Shown here: positions 21,390 through 56,762 of the stretch, piece after piece | Layout of the letters: each line of letters opens with the position of its first letter | Position numbering within the stretch: position 1 is the first letter of the stretch | Assembly: GCA_964521295.1 (NCBI GenBank) | Contig: CAZFRF010000001.1 | Coordinates: 774,738 to 838,737, forward strand | DNA from: an uncultured Gammaproteobacteria bacterium | GTDB lineage: Bacteria; Patescibacteriota; Microgenomatia; Levybacterales; UBA12049 | Direction of reading: 5' to 3' | Length of the DNA: 64,000 nt | Made by a program: the position numbers and the translations under genes | The notes under the pieces: model-generated | What the model saw: only the letters and a program-made list of their open reading frames with translations | Told to the model about the DNA's origin: nothing | Database searches by the model: none

Positions 21390-24640
<3,251 letters not shown>

Positions 24641-35098: not shown

Positions 35099-36142
35099 TT
35101 ATCTTCTCATTCGTTTTTTAATTTCTTTGTTGATATAGAATCTAATAATAAATCGAGCGACAAAGAAGAAAATAATTAGGCCAATAAGCAGGGTTATTAT
35201 TACTTTGTAGGGTATTACCCAAAAAGTAATGCTTTGCTCGATTGGAATATCTCTTTTACCATTATCATAAACCAATAAGAGATTGGCAGTATATTTACCA
35301 ATTCTAAAGCTTGTTAATTTATTCCAATTGATAGTCAGTTTTTCTAGTGCTTTTCCATTCTTATCTAACTTTATTTGTCCATCTTCTTTTAAGGGTTCTT
35401 TAACTATAAATCCGTCAAACCAGCTAGCAGTGAGATCTCGTCTGGTTTCTGGAATGATGTTAGCTGCTGTTTGATTAACATCTAAAATACCAATATTGTC
35501 GTTATTGCCACTGGTAATAAAAATATTTCCTCTAGGTCTAACATGAACATTGCCAGTGTTTTCAAGTTTAATATTGAAATTAATAGGTAAGTATTCATTA
35601 ATATAATTAGGTGTTGAGAAGTTAAGTATCTTGACTTCGGCTTTCGCTCCATTTTTTCTAACATTTAAAAGGATTGGTACAGCAGCCGCTCCTGTTATTT
35701 TAGTTCCAACTTGATTTAATTTATCATTGTTTTCTTGGGTAAAGTTAACTGCAAAGTAGTATCCATAGGCTGCTGTCTTAGGTACTTCAATGGAAAAGGG
35801 TACATCTGTCCATTCCAAGGGTTTTGCAACAAAGGTTTTCTCCTTAAACTTAATCCAAGACAAGCTATTGTCATCGTTTTCATCTTTAATTACTAAATCT
35901 CCATTGTCATCTCCTGTTAGTTTCTTAACTTCAAGCTTTATTGACAAAGGATTGCTTGTATTATTCCTTACTCTAATCTTGTCAGAAACAGTACTTCCAG
36001 GATTTGCAGACAAGTCAAAGAAAACAGGCGAGACTGTTACATCATAGTTAGGAGATTGTTGGGCGAAAGAATATTTAGCTCCAAATATGAAAACTAGAGT
36101 AAGGGAAATTAGAAATAATCCTGAAAATAAGGTTTTCTTCAT
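35099..36142 (-). CDS. DUF916/CscA-like cell-surface protein, paralog 2
   Basis: Signal peptide, 141 aa identical to paralog 3, C-terminal TM 'IITLLIGLIIFFFVARFIIRFYINKEIKKRMRR'. Confidence 0.55.
   Translation of the reverse strand: MKKTLFSGLFLISLTLVFIFGAKYSFAQQSPNYDVTVSPVFFDLSANPGSTVSDKIRVRNNTSNPLSIKLEVKKLTGDDNGDLVIKDENDDNSLSWIKFKEKTFVAKPLEWTDVPFSIEVPKTAAYGYYFAVNFTQENNDKLNQVGTKITGAAAVPILLNVRKNGAKAEVKILNFSTPNYINEYLPINFNIKLENTGNVHVRPRGNIFITSGNNDNIGILDVNQTAANIIPETRRDLTASWFDGFIVKEPLKEDGQIKLDKNGKALEKLTINWNKLTSFRIGKYTANLLLVYDNGKRDIPIEQSITFWVIPYKVIITLLIGLIIFFFVARFIIRFYINKEIKKRMRR
35642..36069. repeat. 428-bp perfect direct repeat, copy A (within paralog 2)
   Basis: 100% identical to 36677..37106; offset ~1036 bp; identical antisense ORFs 35790..36047 and 36827..37084 in the track are a by-product. 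Confidence 0.9.
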
Positions 36143-37185
36143 TTTTTGAATATCTTTATTATTCTCTTTATAAGGTTTTTAATTGTGTTAGCAAAGCCTA
36201 AGAAAGCAAAAACTACAAAGGCAATAGCAATTAAAACAACCTTCCAGGGAAAAACAAAGAAGCTGGTTTCGCTTTGGAAAGGAATGTCTCTGGTATTAGT
36301 ACTGATTACAAGAAGCGATGTGGCAGTATATTTACCAATTCTTAAGTCTAAGATCTTATCAAATTTAATTTTAAGTGTAGTCTGAGGTTTTCCGTTCTTA
36401 TCTAACTTTATTTGCCCATCTTCCATCTTGGGCTCTTCGGTAATAAAGGAATCATTCCAAATTGACTCAAACGCCTTTTTTGTATTTGGTAAAACTGTTC
36501 CTTGAGTACTGTTGACATCTAGAATAGCCACTTGTCTGCCTAAGAAGTCTCTAATAAAAATATTCCCTCTGGGTTTAACATGAACATTGCCAGTATTTTG
36601 AAAAACTGTAGTTAGGCTTACTGGTAAGTATTCGTAAAAACCTTTTGTTGCTGTAAAACTTTTAACATTTCCTTCGAATTTCGCTCCATTTTTTCTAACA
36701 TTTAAAAGGATTGGTACAGCAGCCGCTCCTGTTATTTTAGTTCCAACTTGATTTAATTTATCATTGTTTTCTTGGGTAAAGTTAACTGCAAAGTAGTATC
36801 CATAGGCTGCTGTCTTAGGTACTTCAATGGAAAAGGGTACATCTGTCCATTCCAAGGGTTTTGCAACAAAGGTTTTCTCCTTAAACTTAATCCAAGACAA
36901 GCTATTGTCATCGTTTTCATCTTTAATTACTAAATCTCCATTGTCATCTCCTGTTAGTTTCTTAACTTCAAGCTTTATTGACAAAGGATTGCTTGTATTA
37001 TTCCTTACTCTAATCTTGTCAGAAACAGTACTTCCAGGATTTGCAGACAAGTCAAAGAAAACAGGCGAGACTGTTACATCATAGTTAGGAGATTGTTGGG
37101 CGAAAGTAGATACTAAAGGGATAAAAACAAAAAAACCCACTAAAAGGCTTAGGGGCAGCAGTAATTTTTTTAACCTCAAATTCAT
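36139..37185 (-). CDS. DUF916/CscA-like cell-surface protein, paralog 3
   Basis: Start overlaps stop of paralog 2 (ATGA-type coupling); same mature N-terminus 'AQQSPNYDVTVSPVFFDLSANPGS...'. Confidence 0.55.
   Translation of the reverse strand: MNLRLKKLLLPLSLLVGFFVFIPLVSTFAQQSPNYDVTVSPVFFDLSANPGSTVSDKIRVRNNTSNPLSIKLEVKKLTGDDNGDLVIKDENDDNSLSWIKFKEKTFVAKPLEWTDVPFSIEVPKTAAYGYYFAVNFTQENNDKLNQVGTKITGAAAVPILLNVRKNGAKFEGNVKSFTATKGFYEYLPVSLTTVFQNTGNVHVKPRGNIFIRDFLGRQVAILDVNSTQGTVLPNTKKAFESIWNDSFITEEPKMEDGQIKLDKNGKPQTTLKIKFDKILDLRIGKYTATSLLVISTNTRDIPFQSETSFFVFPWKVVLIAIAFVVFAFLGFANTIKNLIKRIIKIFKK
36677..37106. repeat. 428-bp perfect direct repeat, copy B (within paralog 3)
   Basis: See copy A. Confidence 0.9.
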
Positions 37186-37193
37186 GATAGATC

Positions 37194-38312
37194 CTAGAAT
37201 GATCCGGCAGCAACGACTGTAAGTGTATCGCTATAGTCATTTGCTGCAGATTGGGTAGCAGCAACTGATGCTCTTACATTTAACGTAACGGTTGTTCCTG
37301 ACTGGCTTCCTCCTAGGCTTGCAACTTGTCTAAATTGTGTATCAATATGTCCAACAGTAGAAGCGCTTCCTTGATATCCTGCAGCAATTGTTGGAGTATT
37401 CGTTCCAGGTTGAGCGTCTAATCCATAACCACTAGTTGTTCCATTGGTTGTTAAGGTTCCAATTTGAGGATATGCTCCTAGACTAAAGATTTGCGCATTA
37501 GCAGTTGGGGAATATAGTCCATTCCAGTTAGTTCCTTTTACCCAAGATACAAAGCCATTCCTAGCGTTAGTTGAAACTGTTTGCGTAACAGTTCCAGATG
37601 AGATTGCAGTTGTTGAAATAGAGCCTAAGGCAACTGAGTTAGCAGATAGAGAGAAAGTCATAGTTGCGGCAACAGATGCTGTAACTGTAATTTGATCTGC
37701 TCCAGAAGATACAACTGAAGTTGCCCAGTCTAATGTATCAACGTATGGTGTTCCTCCTTGGGTTTTTAATGTACCAGTTTTATCATTTCCAGCTGAACCG
37801 ACAGTAGAGGAGGCTCCTGCAAAGTTAAAGCAATAGAAGGTTCCAGTTGATAGATCTGTGGTTGGGAAGGTAACATTAAGTCCATTAACGTTTGAAGCAG
37901 TATTAATTCCGGGCCAGGCAGTTGCTGCTCCACCACCAACTGGATCAGTTGGCAGATTAGTAGTTGTTACAGTCCAGTTAGATGCAGTGGAAGAAATGGT
38001 CCAACCTTGTGGGAATGTTATTACTGTGCCAGTCTCTGTTCCTGAAGTTGATGTTTTAAGACAAGCTGTTCCGGAAATAGCAGATCCAGTTGCTAATCTA
38101 TCAAATCTAACAAAACCTTCTGTAATAGTTGCATTGGCTTTTCCTGGAGTAAATAAAGGGTAGAGAATAAGTAAAAGTAAGGATAAGTTTAAGACTAAAC
38201 TCAAAATGTTATTCTTTTCTTTTAAATTGTTCACCTTAATATTTTGGGCAATTTTAGATAAGTCCATAAAATAATATACTTCTAGCAAATCATATTCATA
38301 AACTCTTGTCAA
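37194..38312 (-). CDS. Thr/Ser/Gly-rich secreted surface protein with conserved C-terminal motif (...NDYSDTLTVVAAGSF); probable start at internal Met (MDLSKIAQ..., ~38267)
   Basis: Signal-anchor 'ILSLVLNLSLLLLILYPLF'; N-domain paralogous to N-domain of 48874..51708 gene; C-terminus shared with 38330..39403. Confidence 0.5.
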   Translation of the reverse strand: MTRVYEYDLLEVYYFMDLSKIAQNIKVNNLKEKNNILSLVLNLSLLLLILYPLFTPGKANATITEGFVRFDRLATGSAISGTACLKTSTSGTETGTVITFPQGWTISSTASNWTVTTTNLPTDPVGGGAATAWPGINTASNVNGLNVTFPTTDLSTGTFYCFNFAGASSTVGSAGNDKTGTLKTQGGTPYVDTLDWATSVVSSGADQITVTASVAATMTFSLSANSVALGSISTTAISSGTVTQTVSTNARNGFVSWVKGTNWNGLYSPTANAQIFSLGAYPQIGTLTTNGTTSGYGLDAQPGTNTPTIAAGYQGSASTVGHIDTQFRQVASLGGSQSGTTVTLNVRASVAATQSAANDYSDTLTVVAAGSF

Positions 38313-38329
38313 TAGTATTGTTGAGCTAT

Positions 38330-39403
38330 TTAGAATGAACCCGTTGCTATAACAGTTAAAATATCACTATAGTCATTTGCTGAAGGAGTAGTGTTTTTAA
38401 CTTTGGCTTTTAATTCAAATGAAGCTTGTCCATTAGTTACTGGTGCAGAAGTGGAATCTGCTATCGGTCTTTTACTGGTGTCGATTACGCCAACATTGTC
38501 ACTTGCTCCATTATAGGGAGATAAAAGTTCCATGGGTCCGCCTGAAGTTTGAGCTACTGTTGTTCCTCTGGCTCCGTAGCCCTCAAGGGCTGCGGAAAGA
38601 TCAGTAGAGGAGCTACTGATGTTATAGTTACTTGCAGTTGTGCTTTTTAACCCATTATTTGTACCATAAAGATATATTAAGCCGCCGTTTGTAGCATTTG
38701 TGGTAATTGTGACATTTACTTTATCGGAAGACGTTGTAACAGACCCGGCTGTTAAGTTGCCTATGTTAACAGAAAATGGAGGAGAAATAAGACTAGTAGT
38801 GGTTAAGCTGAATGTAAAGCTAGGGTTTACGGTTGCCGAAGATGCAATCGGAGAATATTTACTTTGAGTATATGTTCCATTTCTGGCTGTTACCCTAGCA
38901 TAATAGGTAGTTCCTGGATAAAGTCCTATTAAGGTAAAGCCGCTTCCTGATCCCCATGCACTATATGTTTGCCAAGCAGGGCTTTGCCCCAAGGTATTAT
39001 CTGCCTGTACAAAAAACGTATCAGATGCAAAGTCAGCTGATCCCGATGATATTTGAATTGCAAAGGTTGAATCAGAAGAATTGTTAGCATTGTTTATAGT
39101 TAGACTAAGTTTGTTATAGTAATTTGAAGGGTTACTGAAAGTTGGCATTCCTGGAGTATTAGCCTGAAGAGTGTTGGTTAATCCTGCTCCCAAAATAAAA
39201 TTCGTCGACGAGGCAGAGGCAGTGTCTACTTCTCCTGATGAGCCCTGAAATAAGAAATTTTCTGAACTTGAAGTTGCAACACCTCCAGAGCCAAAACCAT
39301 ATTCAAGTAATTGATAATTTGTGCTTGTTGGTCCAGCTAGGGCAATAGGAGAAAATGCAAAATAACTTAAACTTAAGGCTAATAAAATTAATTTCTTATT
39401 CAT
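38330..39403 (-). CDS. Thr/Ser-rich secreted surface protein with same C-terminal motif (...NDYSDILTVIATGSF)
   Basis: Signal peptide 'MNKKLILLALSLSYFAFSPIALA'; fibronectin-like 'YYARVTARNGTYTQSKYSP' segment. Confidence 0.5.
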   Translation of the reverse strand: MNKKLILLALSLSYFAFSPIALAGPTSTNYQLLEYGFGSGGVATSSSENFLFQGSSGEVDTASASSTNFILGAGLTNTLQANTPGMPTFSNPSNYYNKLSLTINNANNSSDSTFAIQISSGSADFASDTFFVQADNTLGQSPAWQTYSAWGSGSGFTLIGLYPGTTYYARVTARNGTYTQSKYSPIASSATVNPSFTFSLTTTSLISPPFSVNIGNLTAGSVTTSSDKVNVTITTNATNGGLIYLYGTNNGLKSTTASNYNISSSSTDLSAALEGYGARGTTVAQTSGGPMELLSPYNGASDNVGVIDTSKRPIADSTSAPVTNGQASFELKAKVKNTTPSANDYSDILTVIATGSF

Positions 39404-39415
39404 ATTTTTAGTTTA

Positions 39416-39835
39416 TTATATTGGCAAATAGAATGCACTAAGTCCAAACAAAGGATGTAAATATTCAAACGTACAAACTTGGGGAATAGAGTTTTTGTTA
39501 CATAAAACTGCCATTTGTGACTGTGCAAATGTAAGCTCATTTGTGCGGTAATTAATTAAAGTTTTTAAGGCTGCTTTCATGTCATTTTCAGTTGGATAGA
39601 GAACATTAAGCGAACTTAAGGAAATACCTCTCAAAAAGTCCTTAGCTAGGGAAGGACTTATTTTTTCATAGATTTGTCTATATGTTTCAATTACATTTAA
39701 ATAGCCTGTGTAGACAAAGTATTTTTCCTGCGCAAAGAATCTAAAATACGCACTTGCTTGAGCGTGTTTTTCATGAGCTCTATCTACAAAAGCGTAGAGT
39801 AGTTCAGTTGTAACAAATACTTTTTTACTTGTCAT
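39416..39835 (-). CDS. hypothetical protein, possible PIN-like toxin partner
   Basis: 139 aa immediately downstream (8-nt gap) of HTH gene; N-terminal 'KVFVTTELLYAFVD' weakly PIN-like; call by context only. Confidence 0.3.
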   Translation of the reverse strand: MTSKKVFVTTELLYAFVDRAHEKHAQASAYFRFFAQEKYFVYTGYLNVIETYRQIYEKISPSLAKDFLRGISLSSLNVLYPTENDMKAALKTLINYRTNELTFAQSQMAVLCNKNSIPQVCTFEYLHPLFGLSAFYLPI

Positions 39836-39842
39836 AATCTAG

Positions 39843-40118
39843 CTACAAATTAAGCGATGCGCCCCTTCCTTGTAGCTGAAAGAAGGGATCAATGTCTGTA
39901 AAAGTTTTAGCTGGAGATCTAGTTTCGGTTGCAGTTTTCATTTTAGGAATTCTAGGAGCGAACTCGCGATTTAGTTCTTGAAGCTGAGATTCTTTAATAC
40001 GAACGTTGCCTCCAACTTTAATAGCCTTTAATCTACCTTCGCGAATATAGCGTCTAACAGTTAGGGGATGAACCTTTAGAATAAATGCTGCTTGGTTAAT
40101 ATTAAACAAATTTTCCAT
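39843..40118 (-). CDS. excisionase/MerR-type HTH (HTH_17) DNA-binding protein, antitoxin-like
   Basis: 'AAFILKVHPLTVRRYIREGRLKAIKVGGNVRIKESQLQE' matches HTH_17 excisionase-family fold. Confidence 0.55.
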   Translation of the reverse strand: MENLFNINQAAFILKVHPLTVRRYIREGRLKAIKVGGNVRIKESQLQELNREFAPRIPKMKTATETRSPAKTFTDIDPFFQLQGRGASLNL

Positions 40119-40261
40119 GTTTTTAAATTTTTAAGGCTAATTTTTCACAAAGGCCTTATACAATTTTATACAATATTATGCAATTTTATGCAAGATATCA
40201 GAATATTTGACGGCTGGGTTTAAACTTAGTGTAATTAATATTACGAAGTAATATTAATTAA

Positions 40262-43200
40262 ATGCTTAACCTGCCCATAATCAATTCTAGAAAAATTTTC
40301 ACGCTACTAGCAATAGTTATTTTAGCCATAGTTTTCTTAAGTCTAAAACCATTTGTTTTTGCTGCTACGGGTATTCCACGAACAATTAATTTCCAAGGTA
40401 AATTAGTAAACAACTCTTCAGGAATTAATGTTACAAATTCAACTTACTCAGTAGTTTTCACGCTTTACGATAAAGATTCAGGGGGAACAGCTTTGTGGAC
40501 TGAGACTCAAAGTGTTACAACTGTTGATGGAATTTTCAGGGTTGCCTTGGGTTCAGTAACCCCAATCCCTTCTAATTTTAACTTTAACTGGGATGGTTTG
40601 TATCTGGGTATGAAAGTTGGAGCAGATTCAGAAATGACTCCAAGAATTCAAATGGCTTCAGTTCCATTTGCATTCAATTCCCAAAAAGTAGCAGGGTTAA
40701 CTGTTCAGGATACATCAGGTAATGCTTCAACTTCTGGAACTCTACAGATTGCAAATGCAAAAACCATTAACCTGGGTACACAAAACCTTACCTTGACCAC
40801 AACAGGAGATACGACAATCACATTGCCTACAACGGGAACTTTACTTACAAATTCTGCAACAGCAGTACAGACAATAACCTCTACTCAGGGAACTGGCACG
40901 GTTTTAGCTGTCGCTGATTCATCGGCACTTTCTGGAGCATTAACTGGATTTGCTGTTAATTTAACCTCTTCGACCAATAGTCAGAATAAGACTGGTCTTA
41001 GTTTTGATCTTTCAGGTGGTACTGGTGCGACATATTACGATATATTAGGTACTGGTAGTACATGGAGTATTACTAGAGCTGGTGTATTAACTGTTTCTTC
41101 ATGTACGGGTTGTGGAGGAGGAGGCGCAAGTTATTGGAATTTAGTTTCTGGTAATGGAGTTTCAAATGGTGGATACATAACACCAATTAATTCAACCGCA
41201 GATTTCTTTTTGGGTGGTCAGGCAACAACATCTGCAAAATTTGGAGTGCTAAATTTAAATTCTGGAATTCCAATCGCAACAATTGCTGGTAATTTTGTTA
41301 TTCAGCCTCAACTGGGTGGAGGAGGAAGGTTAGGAATTGGAACTGATCCATCTGTCTACAATTATCTAATTGATGCAACTAAAGATATTAACGATATTTC
41401 AACCGTTAATGTTTGGAATCCAAATTTAGGAAGTGCTGCTTGGGCTGGATTTAGAGCAGGTGGCTCACAGTCTAGTGGCGATAACATTCAACTTCTTTTT
41501 ACTGGTAGTCAGCAAGGAGGCAGTGCATTAAATAGAATTGCTAGCTCAGCATTACTTGAATCAGGCTCAGGCGCAAGTGGAGGATTAATTTTAATAACTG
41601 ATCATTCTTCTGCACCGATAATTTTCGCAACTGGCGGAAATGCTTTAACCAATGAGAGATTAAGGATTACTTCTACGGGTGTCTTAAGTTTGGGTAGTAC
41701 TTCCGGAGAATCACAGCTAAGCGTTACTAGGCCTTTGTCGTGGGGCGCTACTGGTAAATCCTTAGCTATACTTAATCAAATTGAAAATCAGGATATTTTC
41801 ACAGCTTCTGCTTCAGGAACTCCAGTTATAACAATTTCTAGGGCTGGAGGATTGGGAATCGGTGGAGGACCAGGCTCAAGTCCAAATTACGGAACAGGCT
41901 CAAATTGTCTTTTAGGAGGAACTACTATTTCCTGGGGGTCTTGTGCGGCTGGTTCTGGAGATGGAATAGATAGATGGCAAGTAAACAATGGAGTGTTATC
42001 TCCTGGAAACCAAACCTTGGATTTTGCTGTTGGCGGAACAGCTTCGACATCTGCAAAATTATTAGTGTCTCAGTTGGGAACTAATGCAATAGCTTCAGTT
42101 GCTGGTTCAACTTCTTTTTCAGCATTAGTAGTTGATAATAGTGGTACAGGAAGTTTATTTACCGCATCTTCTTCTGGATTAACGAGATTTGTAATTAACA
42201 AAAATGGCGGAGTTGGTATTAATACAGCATCAATTGGTGATGGCCTAGAGCTAGATGTTAATGGAAGCGCAAGAATTGGAACAACTGCAGTTGCGGCTCC
42301 AGATGATATTATGAAAACTGATACTACAGACTTTACAGTTAGTGGGTATAGCGCAACTACTGTAACCACGAGCGGAGATAAGATAACTTTGCCTGTAAAT
42401 CAAATAGCCAGCGCAAAAGTTCCAGCAGCAGGACCAAATACAACATATGCGGTTGCAACCTGGTCAGCTGCTTTAACCAGAGCAGATGGAAAAGTGTTAG
42501 TTATAACAGGTGATTCCGCCAATACATCAGGTAATGTAAGAAAAACAACCATTTATGAATCTAGATCTAATACTTTTTTAGCAGGTCCTTCTTTAGTTAA
42601 TACACCACATGCCTCAAATGCTGCTGTATTTCAGCTTGCTAATGGTACTTTCTTAGTTGCTTTGGGAAATGGATCGCAAATTTATAATCAAGCTGGTGTT
42701 AATGGTACGGGAAGCTTTACCCAAGGAGCTCCTTTAATGGCTAATCCGGCATCTCCAAATACAAATTCAGTTGTGGGTGCAGGTGCCCGTTTTATTAGAA
42801 GGTTTGATGGCTCATTAATTTTAATTTTAGGTGGGAATAGTACTATGACAAATATTTATAATCCAACTAATAATCAATTTATTTATGGACCTAGTTTAAC
42901 AACAGGTGTTGCTTCAGGAAGTGCAGTATTCCAAAGACCAGATGGGAAATGGATTGTTGTCGTTGGTGGAGGAACCAGTACTACTAATATATATGATCCA
43001 TCGCTTGGAAATGGTGGTGCTTTTACCGCAGGACCAGCTCTTGCTGCTGGAAATGCAAATTATGGAGCTAATGTTTTTCAATTATCAGATGGTAGATTCA
43101 TGTTGATTAACGGTGGAGGAACGAATACTACTAATATATACAATCCTATTTCTAATACTTTTACATCTGGTCCAACTTTAACAACAAATGTTGGTTCGGG

Positions 43201-46200
43201 TTCTCAAACAATCCAAAGATCAGATGGTAAATGGTTGGTAGTGGCTGGTGGAGGATCAAAAGCTGTAAATTTATATGATCCAACAACAAATACATTTAGT
43301 CAGCCTGCAAATTCTGATTTAACAGCTCCAGCTGGAGTTGGCGCAGTTACATTCCAGAGAGAAGATGGAAAATATATAGTAGTTCATGGAGGAAATTATA
43401 ACGTTGGCGTAAACGTTGTCTCGACAACTCTATATGATGCAGGTTGGCAAACTAGTGGTATTTGGATTTCTGAGGATATAAATAATACAAAAATATCAAC
43501 TTATTCAGCTATATCATGGGTTTCAAATCCACAAATAGCTGCAACGCCTTCGTCAAACGTTACATTTCAGGTTAAAACCTCTCCTACCCAGGGAGGATTA
43601 GCTACAGCTACTTGGAATACTATTGCGAATACAGGTGATTTAATTCAAGCTGTAGCTGGAGCGCAATGGATAAAGATTCAAGCTTTGTTTGCAGCTCAAA
43701 TTCCTCAACCATATACAGTAAGTATTCCTAATAATATTCAATCAGGAGTTTGGCCAGCTGAGGGAGGAGTTTCGTACTTTAGGTATGCATTAGAACCTAC
43801 TTTATTCAGAATTAGAATTATTAATCCAATTGCGGGTTATGGAGGTTGGGTTTCAACAGATTTATATAATGGTAGAAATGAAGCAACTCAAGGTGCTGTA
43901 CTGGATAATGTTGTAATTGATAATACAAATAGATTAACTCTGGCTACAAATAGATTTAATGGTTCTGCTTCAGCGTCTGCGGGTGTAATTATTGCTTCTG
44001 CTTCAGCAAATTTGGGTGGAGCTGCTGGAGCTGGTTCAGTTACCATAACCTTGCCAAGTGGTAAGTTATTAGTAATACTAGGTCAAGCTAAAAACTCTAC
44101 TGTAATTTACGATCCTATTACAGGTCAATCTACTGCAGGTCCAATTTTGTCATCCGCAACAACAACAACTGGTACGTTTGCTTTCCAAAGACCTGATGGT
44201 AATTTTGTTGTAGTTATAGGAGGAACAGCAATTACTAATATCTATAATGTTTCCTCAAATACTTTTTCTGTCGGTCCGTCTTTGTCGGGAAATGCAGGAA
44301 CTGGAGCCCATGCGATTCAAAGGCCAGATGGAAAGTTTGTTATCTTTAGAGGAGGTACAACTGTATTTACAAATATTTATGATCCAATTTCGAATTCAAT
44401 GGTTGATGGACCACAGGTTACAGGAGGCTCTGTTGGTGCTGGAGCATTTTCAATTAGAAGATCTGATGGAAGATATTTAACAATTTTAGGAAATAATACT
44501 GCTGTAGTAAATTTATATGATCCATATCAAAATTCCTTTACCTTAGGAGCTGCTGTATCAGGTGCAGTAAGTACAAATGGTAATGGAATTATGCTTCCTA
44601 ATGGTAGAGTTTGGGCAACTAGAACAACAACTACTTCGGAAACTATTAATCCATTAGTAACAGCTGAGCCTGTAGCTGCCTCAGGTTATTCAGTTGCAGG
44701 TCCTGCTATTACTTCAATTGGTGTTGGTTCTCATATGATTCCAATGGCTGATGGCAAGGTAATGCTTTTTACTGGAAATTCTGTTTCATATAACGTTTAT
44801 AACCCTGCAGCTAATACAATGGTTGTATCATCAACTGGTACAGTTGCCGTTGGTGCATTACCACAAACCGTGGGAGATGGAGCTCAGTCAATTCAGCTTC
44901 CGAATGGTAAGTTTTTAGTTATCTCTGGAAACAATACAACAAATACTATGATTGTTGATACGGGTTTTGTTATGAATGGCACCTATATTTCTGAGCCTAT
45001 TTATGCACCTACATTGAGTAGTGCTACTTCACTTCTATGGAAGAATGTCGGCGGAGGAAATGTTAATGCAAAATATAGGACAGCAGCATCAAGTACCGCT
45101 TTAACAACTACTCAATGGGTAGACTTAGAAAAAGATGATGGAGCGCTTGCACCAAATCCAGGCGATCAATGGGTACAGATAAGACTTGATTTGCAAGCCT
45201 ATCTGCCTAAACAGCCTTATGAAAAAGTAAATGTTACCTCTAATACTTCTGCTGGAGGATTTAGATACTGGCAAGCTCCATCGGCTCCAATATTGCAATA
45301 TTGGAGATTAGTTAATAATACGGATCCGAATTTATTGGTTATGACTAGTGGTGGACAAAGACAGTTTAGATTTCAGGCTGATGGTCAAGCATTTACTGCT
45401 TTAAATGGAGCTTGGAATACGGGTGGAGCAGATTTGGCAGAAAGATATACTTCTAAAGAGGTTCTCGAAGCAGGAGAGGTGGTTGTTGGTGATAAGTTTA
45501 ATGCTCAAAATGTTATAAGAGCGACGACTCCGTATCAGTCTAATATTATGGGGGTGGTTTCAACTCAGCCAGGTTTTGTAGCTGGTGCATATACTCCTGA
45601 TTCATATCCAATTGCTTTAGTTGGACGTGTTCCCGTTAAGATTTCAAATGAAAATGGTGAAGTTAGATCAGGTGATTATTTAACTTCTGCATCAATTCCT
45701 GGATATGCAATGAAAGCAACAGTTGCTGGAAGAGTTTTGGGAACTGCTTTGGAAGATTTCGATAGCACTAAAGAAACAGTTGAATGTCCAACTGATGGTT
45801 ATGGCAGTATTGGTACAACGAGATGTGGAGTTATTACTGCCTTTATTAATTTAACAAGCTATACAGGTGCTGACATTGAGACATTGATGGCTGATAGAAA
45901 CTTCGCATTAGGAATTTCTCAGACAGGACTTCAGTCAGACTCATTCTTAAATGGAGTTGATGAAAAAGATAGAAAGATAGTTGAGTTCTTAAAATCTCTT
46001 AAAGAAGAAAACGGTGTGGAGTCTAATTCGCAAATGTTTACAGGAAGACTTTCTGCTGTTAAAATTTTAAGCTCAGATATAGTTGCAGATTTAATTACAG
46101 CAAAAACAATTAGAGCAGATAGAATTGAAGGCTTGGAAATTTTAACGAATCAAATTTCAAGCTTAAATTCGAGATTAAATACCCTAACTAGTACGGGCTC

Positions 46201-46840
46201 TGGTGTTTTAGGAGATGCTACTGAATCTGCAAATCTTAATACTACTTTTGATTTAAATAATTCAGCAACAGCTTCAGCTGACTTTAATATTAGAGGCAAT
46301 AGTGTGGTTGAGGGAATGTTTATGGTTCTAAAAACTATAACAACTCCTAATCTACTAGTTTCAGATTTTGCGAGCTTTTTTGGAGATGTAGTCTTTAAGA
46401 AAAATGTTAATTTTGAAGGAAGGCCAACCTTTAATAATGATACAGCTGGATTTGCAATAGTTTCTAAAGGAGATAGTTCAGTCGAGATAGAATTTGATGA
46501 TGAGTATAGAGAGATTCCAGTAATTACAGCCAGTATTGTTTTGGATAAGGCTGATAATCCTCAAGAACAAAAACAATTAGAAGACGAGATTCTAAGTGGA
46601 AACTTGTCTTATATAGTAACTCAAAGAACTACTAAGGGGTTTGTGATTAGATTAAATAAATTAGCTAATGCAAACATTAGTTTCTCTTGGGTTGCAATAT
46701 CAGTTAAAAATGCAAAGACAGTTACAAAAAATTCAAATAGGGCAAGTATTAATCCTCAAGCGACTCAGTCTGCTGGTTTTCAGTCAATAGTAAACCAGCT
46801 AAATTTATCAAATTCTAATCAGAATGGGGGTGAGAACTAA
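40262..46840 (+). CDS. giant (2192 aa) secreted Kelch-like beta-propeller repeat / fibre-like protein
   Basis: N-terminal signal anchor; N-domain 'INFQGKLVNNSSGINVTNSTYSVVFTLYDKDSGGTALWTETQSVTTVDGIFRVALG'; >=14 ~48-aa repeats 'NIYxPxxNxFxxGPxLxxxxxxGAxxFQRxDGKxxVVGGG'; C-terminal coiled coil 'RIEGLEILTNQISSLNSRLNTLTS'. Confidence 0.8.
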   Translation: MLNLPIINSRKIFTLLAIVILAIVFLSLKPFVFAATGIPRTINFQGKLVNNSSGINVTNSTYSVVFTLYDKDSGGTALWTETQSVTTVDGIFRVALGSVTPIPSNFNFNWDGLYLGMKVGADSEMTPRIQMASVPFAFNSQKVAGLTVQDTSGNASTSGTLQIANAKTINLGTQNLTLTTTGDTTITLPTTGTLLTNSATAVQTITSTQGTGTVLAVADSSALSGALTGFAVNLTSSTNSQNKTGLSFDLSGGTGATYYDILGTGSTWSITRAGVLTVSSCTGCGGGGASYWNLVSGNGVSNGGYITPINSTADFFLGGQATTSAKFGVLNLNSGIPIATIAGNFVIQPQLGGGGRLGIGTDPSVYNYLIDATKDINDISTVNVWNPNLGSAAWAGFRAGGSQSSGDNIQLLFTGSQQGGSALNRIASSALLESGSGASGGLILITDHSSAPIIFATGGNALTNERLRITSTGVLSLGSTSGESQLSVTRPLSWGATGKSLAILNQIENQDIFTASASGTPVITISRAGGLGIGGGPGSSPNYGTGSNCLLGGTTISWGSCAAGSGDGIDRWQVNNGVLSPGNQTLDFAVGGTASTSAKLLVSQLGTNAIASVAGSTSFSALVVDNSGTGSLFTASSSGLTRFVINKNGGVGINTASIGDGLELDVNGSARIGTTAVAAPDDIMKTDTTDFTVSGYSATTVTTSGDKITLPVNQIASAKVPAAGPNTTYAVATWSAALTRADGKVLVITGDSANTSGNVRKTTIYESRSNTFLAGPSLVNTPHASNAAVFQLANGTFLVALGNGSQIYNQAGVNGTGSFTQGAPLMANPASPNTNSVVGAGARFIRRFDGSLILILGGNSTMTNIYNPTNNQFIYGPSLTTGVASGSAVFQRPDGKWIVVVGGGTSTTNIYDPSLGNGGAFTAGPALAAGNANYGANVFQLSDGRFMLINGGGTNTTNIYNPISNTFTSGPTLTTNVGSGSQTIQRSDGKWLVVAGGGSKAVNLYDPTTNTFSQPANSDLTAPAGVGAVTFQREDGKYIVVHGGNYNVGVNVVSTTLYDAGWQTSGIWISEDINNTKISTYSAISWVSNPQIAATPSSNVTFQVKTSPTQGGLATATWNTIANTGDLIQAVAGAQWIKIQALFAAQIPQPYTVSIPNNIQSGVWPAEGGVSYFRYALEPTLFRIRIINPIAGYGGWVSTDLYNGRNEATQGAVLDNVVIDNTNRLTLATNRFNGSASASAGVIIASASANLGGAAGAGSVTITLPSGKLLVILGQAKNSTVIYDPITGQSTAGPILSSATTTTGTFAFQRPDGNFVVVIGGTAITNIYNVSSNTFSVGPSLSGNAGTGAHAIQRPDGKFVIFRGGTTVFTNIYDPISNSMVDGPQVTGGSVGAGAFSIRRSDGRYLTILGNNTAVVNLYDPYQNSFTLGAAVSGAVSTNGNGIMLPNGRVWATRTTTTSETINPLVTAEPVAASGYSVAGPAITSIGVGSHMIPMADGKVMLFTGNSVSYNVYNPAANTMVVSSTGTVAVGALPQTVGDGAQSIQLPNGKFLVISGNNTTNTMIVDTGFVMNGTYISEPIYAPTLSSATSLLWKNVGGGNVNAKYRTAASSTALTTTQWVDLEKDDGALAPNPGDQWVQIRLDLQAYLPKQPYEKVNVTSNTSAGGFRYWQAPSAPILQYWRLVNNTDPNLLVMTSGGQRQFRFQADGQAFTALNGAWNTGGADLAERYTSKEVLEAGEVVVGDKFNAQNVIRATTPYQSNIMGVVSTQPGFVAGAYTPDSYPIALVGRVPVKISNENGEVRSGDYLTSASIPGYAMKATVAGRVLGTALEDFDSTKETVECPTDGYGSIGTTRCGVITAFINLTSYTGADIETLMADRNFALGISQTGLQSDSFLNGVDEKDRKIVEFLKSLKEENGVESNSQMFTGRLSAVKILSSDIVADLITAKTIRADRIEGLEILTNQISSLNSRLNTLTSTGSGVLGDATESANLNTTFDLNNSATASADFNIRGNSVVEGMFMVLKTITTPNLLVSDFASFFGDVVFKKNVNFEGRPTFNNDTAGFAIVSKGDSSVEIEFDDEYREIPVITASIVLDKADNPQEQKQLEDEILSGNLSYIVTQRTTKGFVIRLNKLANANISFSWVAISVKNAKTVTKNSNRASINPQATQSAGFQSIVNQLNLSNSNQNGGEN

Positions 46841-46963: not shown

Positions 46964-47923
46964 ATGAGAAATGCTAAGCGTTTCTTTATTTTTTTGTTCT
47001 TAGCAAGTATTGCAGCTAACCTTTTGTTAATTGGTTGTTATTTTTACTTTCATACGGATTCTAGGCTTCCGGTAAAGAATGAAGGGACTTTTAATAATTT
47101 AGAGCAACAATTTCCTTTACTTTCCAAAAGGACATTATTTGATTTGCCTCAGGATACATTAATCAATTTCTTGGATTTAAGAAAACAAATTAGAGTCGAA
47201 ACGGAAAAGTATAAGGACGAAATCGGACTTTATTTTGAATACTTACCGACAGGTACAAATATTAATGTTAGCTCCAATACTGAGTATCATGCTGCTTCGC
47301 TTTTTAAAGTACCAGTTGTTATGGCATATTATCATTTTCAGGAAAGAACAGGAATCAAAGATAAAGATACGGTAATAAAATATTCGGAATTAGATAACGA
47401 GTTCGGAGACTTATGGAAAAAGGGAGCAGGTTATCCAATTAAACTATCTGAAGCTGTAAGATTGGCTTTGGAGAAGTCAGATAATACAGCAGCTAAAGTT
47501 GTAGCCAATAATATTACAGATCAAGATTTTGCACCTGTTTATAATGGTTTAGATATAGAATTAGAGGCGGATAATGAGGGAGCAATAGTAACTGCTAAGG
47601 GTTATTCTTCTATTTTAAAAGCTTTATATTTTGCTTCAGTTATCAATAGAGAAGATTCTCATAGGATACTGCAATATTTAGCAAATACTCCTTTTAATGA
47701 TAAATTAGCTGCACCAATACCTAAAAATGTGACAGTAGCACATAAAATCGGTAATTTTATAGATGATGATGGCGTGGATGTTTATAATGATTGTGGTATT
47801 GTTTATGTTCCCAGAAGACCATATCTTTTATGTATGTTGTCAAAATCTGATGAAGTCGTAGCTAGAGAAAGAATGCAAAAACTTTCCAAAATGGTTTATG
47901 ATTTCGTCGCTAATGCGAACTAA
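46964..47923 (+). CDS. class A beta-lactamase-fold serine hydrolase, paralog 1 (N-terminal TM)
   Basis: 'SLFK' (SxxK), 'SDNTAAK' (SDN), 'HKIGN' (KTG-like) motifs. Confidence 0.6.
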   Translation: MRNAKRFFIFLFLASIAANLLLIGCYFYFHTDSRLPVKNEGTFNNLEQQFPLLSKRTLFDLPQDTLINFLDLRKQIRVETEKYKDEIGLYFEYLPTGTNINVSSNTEYHAASLFKVPVVMAYYHFQERTGIKDKDTVIKYSELDNEFGDLWKKGAGYPIKLSEAVRLALEKSDNTAAKVVANNITDQDFAPVYNGLDIELEADNEGAIVTAKGYSSILKALYFASVINREDSHRILQYLANTPFNDKLAAPIPKNVTVAHKIGNFIDDDGVDVYNDCGIVYVPRRPYLLCMLSKSDEVVARERMQKLSKMVYDFVANAN

Positions 47924-47925
47924 AA

Positions 47926-48846
47926 ATGTTTAAAAAATTACCTCAAATTATATTTATTCTCTTAATTTTAAGCATTAGTCTTAATTTGTTTTTTGGATAT
48001 AAGCTAGCAAATGTAAATTCTAATTTTAAAGATCAAGAGATTAAATTTAATCTCTTGGCGAAAAGAATATTTCTGGAAAACTTTAGCGATATTTTAATAA
48101 ATTTTCTGGATTTAAGATCTAATTTGCGTAATCTGACTAGTCCTTGGGGGGATGATTTTGCAATGTATTTTGAATATTTGCCAACCGGTACAAATATTAA
48201 TATTAATTCTACAAACGAATATTATGTTGCTTCGCTTTTCAAATTACCTGTGGTAATGGCTTATTTTAGACATAAGGAAAAAAATGGGATTACTCGAGAT
48301 ATAACAACTAAATTAAGGCCAGATGAGATTGATCCCAGGTATGGAGAATTGTGGAAGAAGGGCGTTGGTTATGAAATAAGCTTAGATGAGGCTGCCAAAC
48401 TTGCTCTTTTAGATTCAGATAATACCGCCACTAAAGCACTTGGGCCTTATATAGATCAGTCAGATTTTGATGATGTTTATAAGGCAATTGATATAGAGTT
48501 AAAAATTGCTTCGGAAGGGGCATTACTTTCACCAAAAAACTATTCTTCAATCTTAAAAGCTTTGTATTTTAGCGCGGTGCTTAGTAAAGAGCATTCGCAA
48601 TTAATTTTAAATTATTTATCACAAACTAAGTTTGATGACAAATTAGTGGCAGGTATTCCTAATAATGTTAAAGTTGCCCATAAGATTGGAGTAATTGATG
48701 GCCAGTCTTATATGGATTGTGGTATTGTTTATATTCCCAAGAGACCATATGTTTTATGTATGATTTCTAAAAGCGATGAGCTGACTGCGCAGTCTAGGAT
48801 GCAGCAAGTATCCAAAGCAGTGTATGACTACGTTTCTTCTAGATAA
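47926..48846 (+). CDS. class A beta-lactamase-fold serine hydrolase, paralog 2
   Basis: 'SLFK', 'SDNTATK', 'HKIGV'; ~45% identical to upstream paralog. Confidence 0.6.
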   Translation: MFKKLPQIIFILLILSISLNLFFGYKLANVNSNFKDQEIKFNLLAKRIFLENFSDILINFLDLRSNLRNLTSPWGDDFAMYFEYLPTGTNININSTNEYYVASLFKLPVVMAYFRHKEKNGITRDITTKLRPDEIDPRYGELWKKGVGYEISLDEAAKLALLDSDNTATKALGPYIDQSDFDDVYKAIDIELKIASEGALLSPKNYSSILKALYFSAVLSKEHSQLILNYLSQTKFDDKLVAGIPNNVKVAHKIGVIDGQSYMDCGIVYIPKRPYVLCMISKSDELTAQSRMQQVSKAVYDYVSSR

Positions 48847-48873: not shown

Positions 48874-51708
48874 CTAGGACGTTAATTTTCTGCGTTTGTG
48901 AAGAATCCATAAAAATAAATTAAATAACGATACAAGAATAAAGGGTAGAGTCTTTATTCCAAAATTAGAAATAAATAATAATTCAAAAAATAAAGACAAA
49001 AGCAGTAGGGTTTCAAAAGAGATGCCAATGGTCGAGCATATAAAATTGACTACTTTATCTTTGACTTTGTTTTCCCAGTTGTCTTCTTCAATTGTTATTT
49101 TTAAGGCTACATCAGTTTTTTCTTCATACGGAATTTGAGATGTAGATTTATAGCCTTTTTTCATAACCATTAAACTATATTGGCCTAGCCCTTTTTTGAA
49201 GAAAAATTCTCCTTTACCATTTGTCTTGGTACTGGCTATTATTTGCTCAGATGTTGTATCGGTAAGATAGATATTGGCTAGGGGTATGATTTTGCCATTC
49301 GTATCAACAATTACTCCATTAATATACTTCTTATTTCTTTCTCTGTGATTAATTAAATAGAAAAAATATGTAACAAATGTAGATAGGGGGATGTGATGTT
49401 TTTGTGAAAAAGCGAAAAGAGTAATTGTTATAAAAGAAGCTAAAATAACTGTCGCAATCAGATCGAAAAATCTTAAAGAAATATTAAGTATAGAGATATA
49501 TTGAACAGTGCTTTTTAGGAAAACATCGTTGAAGCTGTTGTAGAAATATTTAAGCATGGAAACAATGCTTAATGGATGGCGCTCTAATGTAATTATTGGA
49601 TAATTTGTTTGATCATTATCAGAGATAGTAAAAATTACATTTTTTTCATTATATCCAATGTTGGTAACAGTTGCTTTATATTTTCCCTTGGGTAAAACAA
49701 AATCTAAGTAACCATTGTGGTCACTAAATCCTGGATTAGTGATATTTAGACTGCTTGATACCAGAGGAATAAAGATTCTTTGTTTATCGTTATAAATATA
49801 AAGCATGACCCTTGCGCCTTCAATTGGCTCATCTGTGTTAGATTTTTCTACAACAGTTAAGGGGTTGGTGACTGCAAGTCCAGTTAATTTTCGTTCTGTT
49901 AGGTTGCCGTTTTCATCTTCATAGCTAAGAATTAGGTCATATGATCCTGGTTCAACATTAGACTTAATCGTAGCTGTAAATACACCAGGTTTAATTTCAA
50001 TTAAAGAAACATTATTACTGGCTACCTCATCCTCAATTTTAAAATTGTTAAAGCCTAAAACTTGCCTACTATTTTTTAATTTAGCTTTTTTGCGAACAAT
50101 TAATTTAGCTTTTTTGATTACTTGGTCTGATTTGAAGGAAAACTTTAATTGTAAATTAGTACTTGCAGGAATAACTACAAATTCTTCTTTTTTAGCATTA
50201 GAATCATTGCTGTCTACATTAGTTGTGTCATAGATGATGTTGTTTTTACTTGTAACAACAATACTATTCTCGTTAATTACATTGGGTGGAGCGCTAGCTG
50301 TGGTAAAAGTGAAAATATCAGAATTTATTGTTTTGCCGCTTTTTGTTAAGGCTTTAACGATAAAGAAATATTGCGTAGCGGAATCTAAGTTATTAAGTGT
50401 AAGAGATTGTTTAGTTTTATATTCATTTGCAGAAAAAGTCTTGCTTAGACTATTGACGTTTGTGCCGTAATTAATAGTTAACTTGCTATTGTTTAATGTT
50501 TCAGCATAGATTACTGCTGAATTTTGAGAAATAGATCTTATCTCCAAAACATTAAATACATTGGTTGGTTTTGGGGTGGGGGTGAGGCTTGGAGTTAGGG
50601 TTAAGGTCGGAGTGAGTGTGGTTGTTGATTGAGGTGAGTTGGTGGGTGTAGAAGTTGGCCCGGAAGTTGGTGTAGGGGTAGGATTAAGATTGGAATCATA
50701 AAGATAGTCTTGGCTTACATTTGAGTCTGGGGTGACAGTAGTATTAGCTGTGGCTTTCGCTGAGACGGTGAAGTTAACGGGTAAAGAGCCTGTATATGAA
50801 TCATTAGTTTTTAATTTAAAAGTAAGAAGATTATTAGATGAATTAGCTGGAAAACTAGAATATGTCCAGGTAATTTTATTATGTACAATATCTATAACAG
50901 GAGAGACTCCATTAATTCCGTTGTCTGCGCTGCCTGTTACGTAATCTACGATTTCAACAGATGGGGATGAATTACCCTGAATAGTGCCCTGACTCCAGTT
51001 AGCCTCAAATGTAATAGGGAAAACACTGTTTAGATAAGAGCCATAATTAAGCTTATATGTTAAGGTTTTGTTCTGGGAAAATTGAGTACCCGTGTCAACT
51101 GAGGATAATTCTACTTGCAAGTCTGAAGTATGAGGATCTACTGAAGCTGTAACGTTAATATTGTCGTTATTTACTATTGAAAGAGCATAGCTACTTAAAT
51201 CTACGGTTACATTTGAGCTATTTTTAGTAAAAATAGTGCCTTGTTTATCATTGCCAACATTTCCTGTTGTAGATGATGTACCTTTAAAATTAAAACAATA
51301 AAGAGTATTGCTTGTTAAATCACTTCCATTAAAAGTAACTCCTTGGTTGGAAACGTTTGAGGCTGTTGAGCTAATTCCTGGCCATGGAGTAGAGCCTGTG
51401 GGTAGATTAGTCGTGCTTGTTGTCCAGTTAGACGTAGTTTGAGAAATTGTAAAATCTGATGGAAAGGCAATTACTACTTTTGCTTCTGTGTCTTTTGCTG
51501 CTGATGAAGGCTGAACGCAAGCAGTGCCAGACAAGGAAGTATTAGGTTTTTGGGAATCTAGTCTAATATACGCATTGCTAAAAACAGAAGCAAAGGAAAT
51601 AGAGGGAAGGAATAATAAAATAATAATACCTAAAAGAAGGGTAAGCTTTTTTTGCATATTTATATTTACTCTACATAATTTTTTGCCTTCTAGCAATGCT
51701 TGACACAA
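48874..51708 (-). CDS. large surface protein: surface-paralog N-domain, Pro/Thr linker, Ig/FN3-like and two CarbopepD_reg-like domains interleaved with TM segments (likely start ATG 51657)
   Basis: N-domain paralogous to 37194..38312 ('GTACxxxS...TSNWTxxTTNLPT...LYCFNF'); linker 'PTPTPTSGPTSTPTNSPQSTTTLTPTLTLTPSLTPTPKPT'; 'GARVMLYIY...KGKYKATVTNIGY' and 'GVIVDTNGK...GQYSLMVMKKGY'. Confidence 0.65.
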   Translation of the reverse strand: MCQALLEGKKLCRVNINMQKKLTLLLGIIILLFLPSISFASVFSNAYIRLDSQKPNTSLSGTACVQPSSAAKDTEAKVVIAFPSDFTISQTTSNWTTSTTNLPTGSTPWPGISSTASNVSNQGVTFNGSDLTSNTLYCFNFKGTSSTTGNVGNDKQGTIFTKNSSNVTVDLSSYALSIVNNDNINVTASVDPHTSDLQVELSSVDTGTQFSQNKTLTYKLNYGSYLNSVFPITFEANWSQGTIQGNSSPSVEIVDYVTGSADNGINGVSPVIDIVHNKITWTYSSFPANSSNNLLTFKLKTNDSYTGSLPVNFTVSAKATANTTVTPDSNVSQDYLYDSNLNPTPTPTSGPTSTPTNSPQSTTTLTPTLTLTPSLTPTPKPTNVFNVLEIRSISQNSAVIYAETLNNSKLTINYGTNVNSLSKTFSANEYKTKQSLTLNNLDSATQYFFIVKALTKSGKTINSDIFTFTTASAPPNVINENSIVVTSKNNIIYDTTNVDSNDSNAKKEEFVVIPASTNLQLKFSFKSDQVIKKAKLIVRKKAKLKNSRQVLGFNNFKIEDEVASNNVSLIEIKPGVFTATIKSNVEPGSYDLILSYEDENGNLTERKLTGLAVTNPLTVVEKSNTDEPIEGARVMLYIYNDKQRIFIPLVSSSLNITNPGFSDHNGYLDFVLPKGKYKATVTNIGYNEKNVIFTISDNDQTNYPIITLERHPLSIVSMLKYFYNSFNDVFLKSTVQYISILNISLRFFDLIATVILASFITITLFAFSQKHHIPLSTFVTYFFYLINHRERNKKYINGVIVDTNGKIIPLANIYLTDTTSEQIIASTKTNGKGEFFFKKGLGQYSLMVMKKGYKSTSQIPYEEKTDVALKITIEEDNWENKVKDKVVNFICSTIGISFETLLLLSLFFELLFISNFGIKTLPFILVSLFNLFLWILHKRRKLTS

Positions 51709-56755: not shown

Positions 56756-56762
56756 ATTTTTA

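Follow-up and report, generated by a model that had tools for sequence, protein, structure and literature searches.

Introduction

Surface fibres that combine a constant scaffold with variable adhesive parts have been described in predatory bacteria and in phages. The mosaic adhesive trimer (MAT) fibres of Bdellovibrio bacteriovorus have a signal peptide, a conserved beta-rich N-domain of ~130 amino acids (aa) and a trimeric fibre with swappable adhesive domains and variable tips (PMC10769870). A C-terminal self-cleaving S74 chaperone is present in 13 of the 21 MAT members (PMC10769870). In phage phi29, the D4 domain of the appendage protein gp12 is a beta-tulip autochaperone, which is needed for trimerisation (bioRxiv 10.1101/216911; PMC3357383) and is removed by cleavage once it has folded (PMC3357383). 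The mature form of gp12 in the virion ends at residue 691 (PMC6542822). According to a passage cited in bioRxiv 10.1101/216911, Rossmann's group has pointed out a likeness of gp12 D4 to 'some bacterial adhesion proteins'. Endosialidase tailspikes provide a precedent for beta-propellers on a trimer of this kind (PMC3357383). How Patescibacteria recognize and bind their hosts is an acknowledged open question, and the sole leads are type IV pili and unnamed 'adhesins' (PMC11665869; PMC10633639). In this work, we analyzed a 64-kb stretch of a Patescibacteria chromosome (contig CAZFRF010000001.1 of assembly GCA_964521295.1; this whole stretch is called the window below) and a gene in it that encodes a protein of 2192 aa. 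We regard it as probable that this protein is a cell-encoded trimeric surface fibre of Patescibacteria, similar to the receptor-binding proteins of phages and equipped with a removable gp12-type chaperone at the C-terminus.

Results

The 2192-aa protein and its N-terminal head

The open reading frame (ORF) of the fibre gene starts with an ATG at position 40262 on the + strand and runs without interruption to the stop codon that ends at position 46840. As stated in the first-pass annotation of this DNA, it is the largest gene of the window; the runner-up encodes 1236 aa. The peptides quoted there were found in the protein at aa 42–70 (INFQGKLVNN...FTLYD), aa 77–85 (ALWTETQSV) and aa 1954–1975 (RIEGLEILTNQISSLNSRLNTL). 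That annotation had also considered that such a long protein might be a fusion artefact of a frameshifted assembly. A frameshift or fusion artefact is ruled out because relatives from at least 14 independent assemblies are colinear with the 2192-aa protein over 66–80% of its length, at 42–48% identity.

The protein begins with a hydrophobic segment (the coordinates of this and of all other features are collected in Table 1). This segment had been called an N-terminal anchor. It reads as a Sec signal peptide, which may be cleaved off instead of acting as an anchor; the alanine at position 34 is almost invariant in the family alignment A2. Searches of Pfam, NCBIfam and PDB sequences with the whole protein yielded only hints below the thresholds. 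Using the NCBIfam model NF053851 (Bdello_MAT_N), we found a match in the query fragment with an E-value of 1.3e-8 and 34.8 bits, against a cutoff of 60 bits. The match is partial and covers only positions 7–77 of the 162 profile positions. The same model matched the N-modules of 18 out of 18 relatives (best E 8e-13), all of them under the 60-bit cutoff. This profile evidence indicates that the ~110 aa after the signal peptide are homologous to the N-domain of Bdellovibrio MAT fibres, in agreement with the earlier impression of a fibre- or adhesin-like N-terminus. Relatives carrying the head module come from metagenome-assembled genomes labelled Levybacteria, Roizmanbacteria, Shapirobacteria, Microgenomates, Saccharibacteria and Parcubacteria; judging by these relatives, a Microgenomatia-type (Levybacteria-like) member of the Patescibacteria is the most likely origin of the window. 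The shaft that follows the head (aa 151–700) is shared by part of the relatives only, and no family match was found for it.

As in the MAT proteins (Caulton et al. 2024, PMC10769870), the predicted signal peptide stands directly before a remotely homologous beta-rich N-domain, and a presumed long fibre with mosaic, swappable adhesive domains follows; many MAT members also end in an autoproteolytic chaperone. A further likeness is the lifestyle of the encoding bacterium, on or in other bacteria. In contrast to MAT itself, only part of the N-domain is matched here, with a score that does not reach the NCBIfam cutoff, the host is a member of the Patescibacteria with a monoderm-like envelope, and the gene belongs to a conserved WxLIP/HTH_17 locus. 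The cargo (a double Kelch propeller) also differs, as does the tail, which has 469 aa with a coiled coil and an H-lectin-like knob and in which the predicted chaperone is of the gp12/G2 (beta-tulip) type and not of the S74 type.

The C-terminal module and its predicted cleavage site

In relatives with wholly different cargo, similarity to the query starts abruptly at aa 1721–1724 and continues to the C-terminus. The tail is a family-wide conserved module of 469 aa (aa 1724–2192), which opens with the motif D-x-A-E-x-Y. The D, E and Y of this motif are invariant in 20 of the 20 sequences of alignment A1, and the residue that precedes it (P1) is variable. Among the 186 family proteins that have a downstream GRVPVKV-like motif, 173 contain D-x-[AGS]-E-x-[YFMW], at a median distance of 481 aa from the C-terminus.

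The best structural match in the PDB for the domain at the start of the module is the autochaperone of the phi29 gp12 pre-neck appendage (tailspike), which has the beta-tulip fold. When the tail profile was compared with PDB sequences, phi29 gp12 was the sole match, a weak one (E 0.2–0.5). In the alignment, the invariant D of the family falls on gp12 D692, that is, on residue 1 of the released C-terminal fragment 3gqh. Thus, D1724 and E1727 align with gp12 D692 and E695, and DLAERY aligns with gp12 D692–F697. Comparison with gp12 residues 680–854 by hhalign left the register unchanged (82.7% probability, E 9.5e-6, 80 columns). Work by Xiang et al. in 2009 is said to have assigned catalytic roles to D692 and E695 of gp12. 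With the Pfam model Peptidase_G2 (PF11962), the query reached 15.1–16.5 bits against a cutoff of 25 bits, and the gp12 control reached 282 bits. Jumbo-phage relatives scored 20.7–22.3 bits, and one of 20 family members reached an E-value of 2e-6. Using tblastn, we found a short version of the domain (…KY|ADLAERY…GRVPVKV…) in virion structural proteins of jumbo phages, where it makes up the C-terminal ~130 aa. Its carriers are gp359 of PA5oct, which adjoins the long-tail-fibre gene, and a protein of Sinorhizobium phage Phosso. The fold match with the gp12 autochaperone and these C-termini of virion proteins from jumbo-phage tail-fibre regions speak for the phage-tail ancestry that the first-pass annotation had suspected.

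Like gp12 D4 (PF11962; PDB 3GQ7, 3GQH, 3SUC), the domain follows the functional part of the protein on the C-terminal side, and its D-x-A-E-x-[YF] motif aligns to the cleavage site. Unlike gp12 D4, it shares only ~26% identity with its counterpart and remains below the Pfam threshold. The gp12 domain is the extreme C-terminus of its protein and has 163 aa, whereas ~310 further residues follow here. The passenger of gp12 is a pectate-lyase-like beta-helix and not a pair of Kelch propellers, and gp12 is assembled in the cytoplasm, whereas the export of the fibre would proceed via Sec.

Behind the beta-tulip domain lies a stalk, which is conserved in the family. For the stalk, AlphaFold2 (AF2) gave helices with low values of the predicted local distance difference test (pLDDT), as expected of an oligomeric element. 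A coiled coil had been proposed for aa 1954–1975, and canonical heptads were indeed identified in this segment, with the hydrophobic residues L1958, L1961, I1965, L1968, L1972 and L1975 at positions a and d. The stalk is followed by an H-type-lectin-like beta-sandwich knob, for which the Pfam model H_lectin (PF09458) gave 18 bits against a cutoff of 24 bits. The globular C-terminal knob of the first-pass annotation is thus present as a structure. Most likely, the 469-aa module to which the coiled coil and the knob belong is an intramolecular chaperone or registration device. The module is probably removed by autocleavage, judging by the analogy with gp12, and therefore the functional tip of the fibre is probably formed by another part than the knob.

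We also considered an S74 chaperone in the 2192-aa protein and rejected it, as no Peptidase_S74 match was found in the query. In one relative (P0117, 1621 aa), the C-terminal ~475 aa contain a gp12-like D-Y-A-E beta-tulip together with a Peptidase_S74 domain (E 9e-10), which stands in place of the coiled-coil stalk. In this protein, two types of autoproteolytic chaperone are combined in one tail.

Conserved ends and exchangeable cargo

A word-indexed search gave 118 relatives. The head is present in ~100 of them, the tail in ~80 and the double-propeller cargo in ~19. The cargo of other relatives consists of FG-GAP, LVIVD, LamG, F5/8-C, M23, SH3 or S74 domains or of carbohydrate-binding modules (CBM). 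An exhaustive search with the tail profile, counted as cluster representatives at 50% identity, gave 29,189 matches at E <= 1e-3, 24,112 at E <= 1e-10 and 4,672 at E <= 1e-30. Each of the 150 best matches has the module at its C-terminus, and the proteins are up to 4,422 aa long. Judging by these counts, the family is very large and essentially unannotated. Such a combination of conserved ends and a variable middle would be expected of a fibre whose C-terminal chaperone is removable. From the sequence comparisons, we conclude that the family evolves by swapping cargo between a constant head and a constant tail at a fixed chromosomal locus.

The cargo is a duplicated Kelch propeller

The cargo of the 2192-aa protein (aa ~700–1723) is a tandem duplication. 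Its unit consists of one seven-bladed propeller and one beta domain of ~170 aa, and units 1 and 2 are 29% identical (alignment A3). To count the blades, we used the motif [FI]Q[RL]xDG[KR]..., which occurs seven times at aa 738–1031 and seven times at aa 1262–1544 with a period of 44–54 aa. The first-pass annotation had claimed at least 14 Kelch-type blades in two or three propellers. The motif count is exactly 14, and with 7 + 7 blades there are two propellers and not three.

The Pfam model Kelch_6 gave an E-value of 3.7e-5 on this segment (24.0 bits against a cutoff of 25.3 bits) and matched 7 of 12 homologous units, with a best E-value of 5e-8. In propeller 1, the matches to Kelch_6 and to PDB 6ryx are at aa 934–1019. 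When the cargo profile was compared with PDB sequences, it matched the Kelch protein 9tsn (E 2.6e-8) and the copper oxidase 6ryv (E 1.8e-7). Unit 2 alone was modelled, and the propeller fold of unit 1 is deduced from the 29% identity and the seven motifs. The AF2 model of aa 1236–1723 (pLDDT 78; predicted template modelling score, pTM, 0.74) contains seven four-stranded blades with pLDDT of 80–95 and a beta-sandwich. The sandwich comprises residues 335–450 of the model (pLDDT ~75–89), and residues 454–488 are below 50. Foldseek matched this model to galactose oxidase, KLHL12 and KEAP1 with probability 1.0 and E-values of 1e-10 to 1e-12, and GlxA was a further neighbour. Thus, Kelch_6, the PDB profile comparison, the AF2 blades and Foldseek all agree that the repeats are of the Kelch type and form propellers, contrary to the doubt that the first-pass annotation had left on this point.

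The best fold match (Foldseek ~1e-12) is to galactose oxidase and other AA5 copper radical oxidases and GlxA, in which a seven-bladed Kelch propeller is likewise followed by a beta-sandwich. Unlike these enzymes, the cargo has neither a Cys for the Tyr-Cys cofactor nor conserved His/Tyr copper ligands. There is no Cys in aa 701–1723, and His occurs only at positions 783, 1042, 1350 and 1491; neither residue is found among the invariant or near-invariant columns of alignment A3. We therefore rejected a copper-radical oxidase, as there is no Cys for the Tyr-Cys cross-link and no conserved His. Since the propellers have no copper-radical-oxidase active site, they most likely act as non-catalytic ligand-binding (adhesive) modules.

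The domains that follow the propellers gave no Pfam matches: none was found for aa 1061–1240, and no Pfam carbohydrate-binding module was found in the post-propeller sandwiches of 12 homologues. The middle part of the protein had been described as carbohydrate-binding-like. It is a predicted beta-sandwich that matches no known CBM family, and the label is unproven.

The arrangement resembles the endosialidase tailspike of phage K1F (endoNF), which also has a beta-propeller and a lectin-like beta domain in each chain of a trimer, here a proposed one, and which matures by release of a C-terminal intramolecular chaperone, as predicted here. In contrast to the fibre, endoNF has a six-bladed sialidase propeller with catalytic residues instead of a seven-bladed non-catalytic Kelch propeller, and its chaperone is of the S74 Ser-Lys type instead of the gp12 type.

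Table 1. Features of the fibre gene and its upstream region (positions in the window).
Feature	Position	Strand	Details
Upstream partners	35099..39835	-	139-aa protein, two ~360-aa secreted proteins, two WxLIP_PGBD proteins
HTH_17 (excisionase-type) DNA-binding protein, divergent	39843..40118	-	Pfam E 1.2e-10
Four direct TAT(A/G)CAA boxes, exact 10-bp spacing	40157..40193	.	Divergent intergenic region 40119-40261
TTGACG (-35-like), TGTAAT (-10-like), then perfect inverted repeat	40207..40260	+	RNAfold -9.2 kcal/mol for the repeat
Sec-type signal peptide or N-terminal membrane segment	40262..40366	+	aa 1-35; SRK, hydrophobic core, VFA/AT; sequence reading
MAT-N-like beta-rich N-domain, conserved head	40367..40711	+	aa 36-150; NCBIfam NF053851 match, common to ~100/118 relatives
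Fibre shaft, G/S/T/N/A-rich (58%)	40712..42361	+	aa 151-700; composition
Kelch propeller 1, seven blades	42362..43441	+	aa 701-1060; motifs aa 738, 790, 844, 890, 939, 984, 1031
Beta-rich domain after propeller 1 and linker	43442..43981	+	aa 1061-1240; paralogous to aa 1571-1723
Kelch propeller 2, seven blades	43982..44971	+	aa 1241-1570; motifs aa 1262, 1308, 1352, 1398, 1443, 1493, 1544
Beta-sandwich after propeller 2 and ~35-aa segment to predicted cleavage site	44972..45430	+	aa 1571-1723; AF2
DLAERY, invariant D-x-A-E-x-Y	45431..45448	+	aa 1724-1729; predicted autocleavage site A1723/D1724
gp12-D4-like (Peptidase G2-type, beta-tulip) intramolecular chaperone domain	45431..45901	+	aa 1724-1880
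C-module stalk, including conserved IEGLEILTNQISSLNSRLNTL heptad coiled coil (aa ~1955-1977)	45902..46441	+	aa 1881-2060
H-type-lectin-like beta-sandwich knob	46442..46714	+	aa 2061-2151
Low-complexity tail and stop	46715..46840	+	aa 2152-2192; sequence reading, poorly conserved

The conserved locus

We compared the surroundings of the fibre gene with the loci of its relatives (designated L004–L010, L012 and L014). The HTH_17 gene has orthologues with 60–64% identity at the equivalent position in L004, L005 and L006. The partners upstream of the gene keep their order and sequence (35–62% identity) beside relatives with other cargo. The set that is syntenic, at 35–64% identity, near P0006 (3017 aa), P0050 (2238 aa) and P0047 (1301 aa), all with different cargo, comprises HTH_17, the 139-aa gene, the two ~360-aa secreted proteins, the two WxLIP_PGBD proteins and a downstream CarboxypepD_reg membrane protein. 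The assignment to WxLIP_PGBD (peptidoglycan-binding, WxL-interacting) is based on Pfam PF06030, with an E-value of ~2e-7, above the cutoff. Both of the ~360-aa secreted proteins end in ...DYSD(T/I)LTV(V/I)A(A/T)GSF.

The array of TAT(A/G)CAA boxes in the divergent intergenic region is also present upstream of the relatives in L004, L005, L006, L007–L010 and L012, and it is a candidate operator array of the adjacent HTH_17 protein. The inverted repeat TTAATATTAC-GAA-GTAATATTAA stops immediately 5' of the ATG, and its folding energy by RNAfold is -9.2 kcal/mol. The repeat is retained, with both arms changed, in L004/L012, L006–L010 and L014. It is likely to be a palindromic operator (for HTH_17) and/or a hairpin of the 5'-leader.

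Together with the gene for a 944-aa protein described below, the upstream partners flank the fibre gene as a surface-protein cluster whose gene order and sequences are kept in L004–L006. Directly downstream lie tandem paralogous genes (46964–47923 and 47926–48846, + strand) for proteins of the Beta-lactamase2 fold (E 1e-30 and 1e-38) with N-terminal transmembrane segments; L006 has a single orthologue at this place. The gene at 48874–51708 (- strand) encodes a 944-aa protein with an N-domain as in the ORF 37194–38312, a CarboxypepD_reg domain and C-terminal transmembrane helices. The 1236-aa ORF at 53108–56818 (- strand) has no Pfam match, and a 28%-identical homologue is located at a comparable position downstream of the fibre gene of L005. 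Possibly, this ORF adds a further large protein of the envelope to the locus. In L006 (6200–6586), a gene for a 128-aa four-helix-bundle protein of the bAvd/23S_rRNA_IVP type lies between the HTH_17 and 139-aa genes. Diversity-generating retroelements use Avd proteins as accessory factors.

The window is a segment of a bacterial chromosome with low guanine and cytosine content (~35%), with an unlinked 23S-5S rRNA unit and housekeeping genes; rRNA, S1, RadA and glycosyltransferase genes lie near the fibre gene. No capsid, portal, terminase, tail-tube or baseplate genes were found within the 64 kb, and the search against PHROGs gave nothing significant (a single match at E 0.011). A prophage or tailocin origin was rejected on both grounds. 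Nor did we find further head or tail paralogues of the fibre protein within the window. Taken together, gene content and synteny indicate that the fibre locus is chromosomal and not a prophage.

Farther from the fibre gene, the 23S rRNA match at 21401–24645 is 3245 nucleotides long compared with 2925 nucleotides of the model, which suggests at least one insertion (an intron or an intervening sequence). A tRNA-Ala gene precedes the 23S gene, the 5S gene comes after it, and 16S is absent from the window (unlinked rRNA genes). Two large membrane proteins that match families of the protein O-mannosyltransferase type (PMT_2; TMEM260-like, E 5e-18) are encoded at 25643–27379 (+ strand) and 28098–30203 (- strand). 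The Ser/Thr-rich fibre could be a glycosylation substrate. The gene at 61628–63871 (+ strand) encodes a sulfatase and, in fusion with it, a CBM96 carbohydrate-binding module (E 1e-34 and 4e-27); such an enzyme is unusual for a reduced genome.

Discussion

We propose the following mechanism by analogy with gp12 D4 and with the S74-bearing MAT fibres. The Sec signal peptide would export the fibre, and the MAT-type head would hold it at the cell surface; the WxLIP neighbours may, speculatively, provide the anchoring partner of the head. The three tail modules (the beta-tulip ring, the coiled coil and the sandwich) would associate first, register the chains and drive trimerisation. With the help of the conserved acidic residues D1724 and E1727, the chain would then cut itself at the A1723–D1724 bond, so that the tail is released and binding falls to the second Kelch unit, now at the distal end. 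Given this architecture, a role as a host-attachment fibre is plausible.

Several observations weigh against this reading. The scores for Peptidase_G2 (15 of 25 bits), MAT_N (35 of 60 bits) and H_lectin (18 of 24 bits) are all under the curated thresholds, which speaks against strict membership in these families; the profile and fold comparisons nevertheless give good support for remote homology. With 469 aa, the tail has three times the length of gp12 D4 (163 aa), and the strict conservation of its lectin-like knob would be odd in a disposable part. The ~35 residues before the cleavage site are of low confidence in the monomer AF2 model, and no trimeric beta-helix is predicted there. Close beta-tulip relatives, the capsid decoration proteins, function without cleavage. 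Finally, the release of gp12 D4 uses ATP, and ATP is unavailable outside the cell.

In one alternative, the C-module is retained. The beta-tulip, the coiled coil and the H-lectin-like knob would then form a distal tip that binds a conserved glycan, e.g., one in the cell wall of a host or in the envelope of the bacterium itself, and the variable Kelch propellers would provide a secondary specificity or spacing. Such a role would suit the H-type-lectin-like fold of the knob, which is kin to GalNAc- and Gal-binding lectins and to the tips of tailspikes and pyocin fibres, and its strong conservation across the family. There are also precedents: the P22 tailspike retains a C-terminal auto-chaperone-like domain (PMC3357383), and MAT members without S74 finish in a retained beta-sandwich (PMC10769870). 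However, the invariant D-x-A-E-x-Y lies exactly at the boundary of the module and on the scissile site of gp12, which is hard to explain without cleavage. In addition, fibres normally vary most at the receptor-binding tip, and strong conservation would be unexpected there. We therefore consider a retained tip rather unlikely, though it is the strongest competitor of the fibre with a removable chaperone.

The neighbourhood of the gene allows another explanation, in which the protein does not attach to a host at all. It would be a structural or nutrient-scavenging protein of the envelope, such as a WxL-type complex or an S-layer scaffold that binds environmental polysaccharides. WxL loci of Firmicutes encode cell-surface complexes, and the fibre gene is syntenic with genes for WxLIP_PGBD and the secreted partners, the CarboxypepD_reg membrane protein, LytR_C and the beta-lactamase-fold proteins. 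The CBM, F5/8-C, LamG and M23 cargo of the relatives would also be in place in such a protein. Nevertheless, the architecture fits the recognition fibres of predators and phages (MAT, gp12), and recognition proteins that are under diversifying pressure typically swap their cargo while the locus stays constant. In our opinion, an envelope scaffold is thus improbable, more so than a retained tip. A fibre of a prophage, tailocin or other mobile element, or an assembly or frameshift fusion, for which one could cite the phage derivation of the domains, the adjoining excisionase-type HTH and the annotation of relative P0104 beside an integrase, is effectively refuted: the 64 kb contain no phage structural genes and have an rRNA operon, S1, RadA and envelope genes as neighbours, PHROGs gave no significant match, the Sec signal peptide is a feature that virion fibres do not have, the locus is syntenic across divergent genomes, and full-length colinear relatives exist in at least 14 assemblies.

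We return to the proposed trimeric fibre with a removable gp12-type chaperone. Through this gene, a huge and unannotated family, which consists of giant proteins of the candidate phyla radiation (CPR), is linked to MAT fibres and to the phi29 gp12 autochaperone, two systems that are understood from experiments. The link gives testable predictions, namely, a cleavage site between A1723 and D1724, two catalytic residues, a trimer and a defined binding module. In the literature searched, we found no link of MAT or gp12-type chaperones to Patescibacteria and no description of a MAT-type head combined with double Kelch cargo, an extended gp12-type tail and a conserved Patescibacteria locus. The gp12-type intramolecular chaperone turns out to be far wider in cells than in phages (~24,000 cluster representatives at E <= 1e-10), and Pfam scarcely detects it in the cellular family.

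A broader interpretation, which we offer only tentatively and rate well below the fibre assignment itself, is that phage receptor-binding proteins and MAT fibres have their Patescibacteria counterpart in this family. Its members would be modular, would change by cargo swapping and would determine to which host cell an ultrasmall episymbiont can attach, and they would undergo gp12-type self-cleavage outside the cell; the released coiled-coil/H-lectin trimer may then persist as a free or wall-bound lectin. If this is true, the ~29,000 clusters of the family would represent a readable 'host-range code' for uncultured CPR bacteria.

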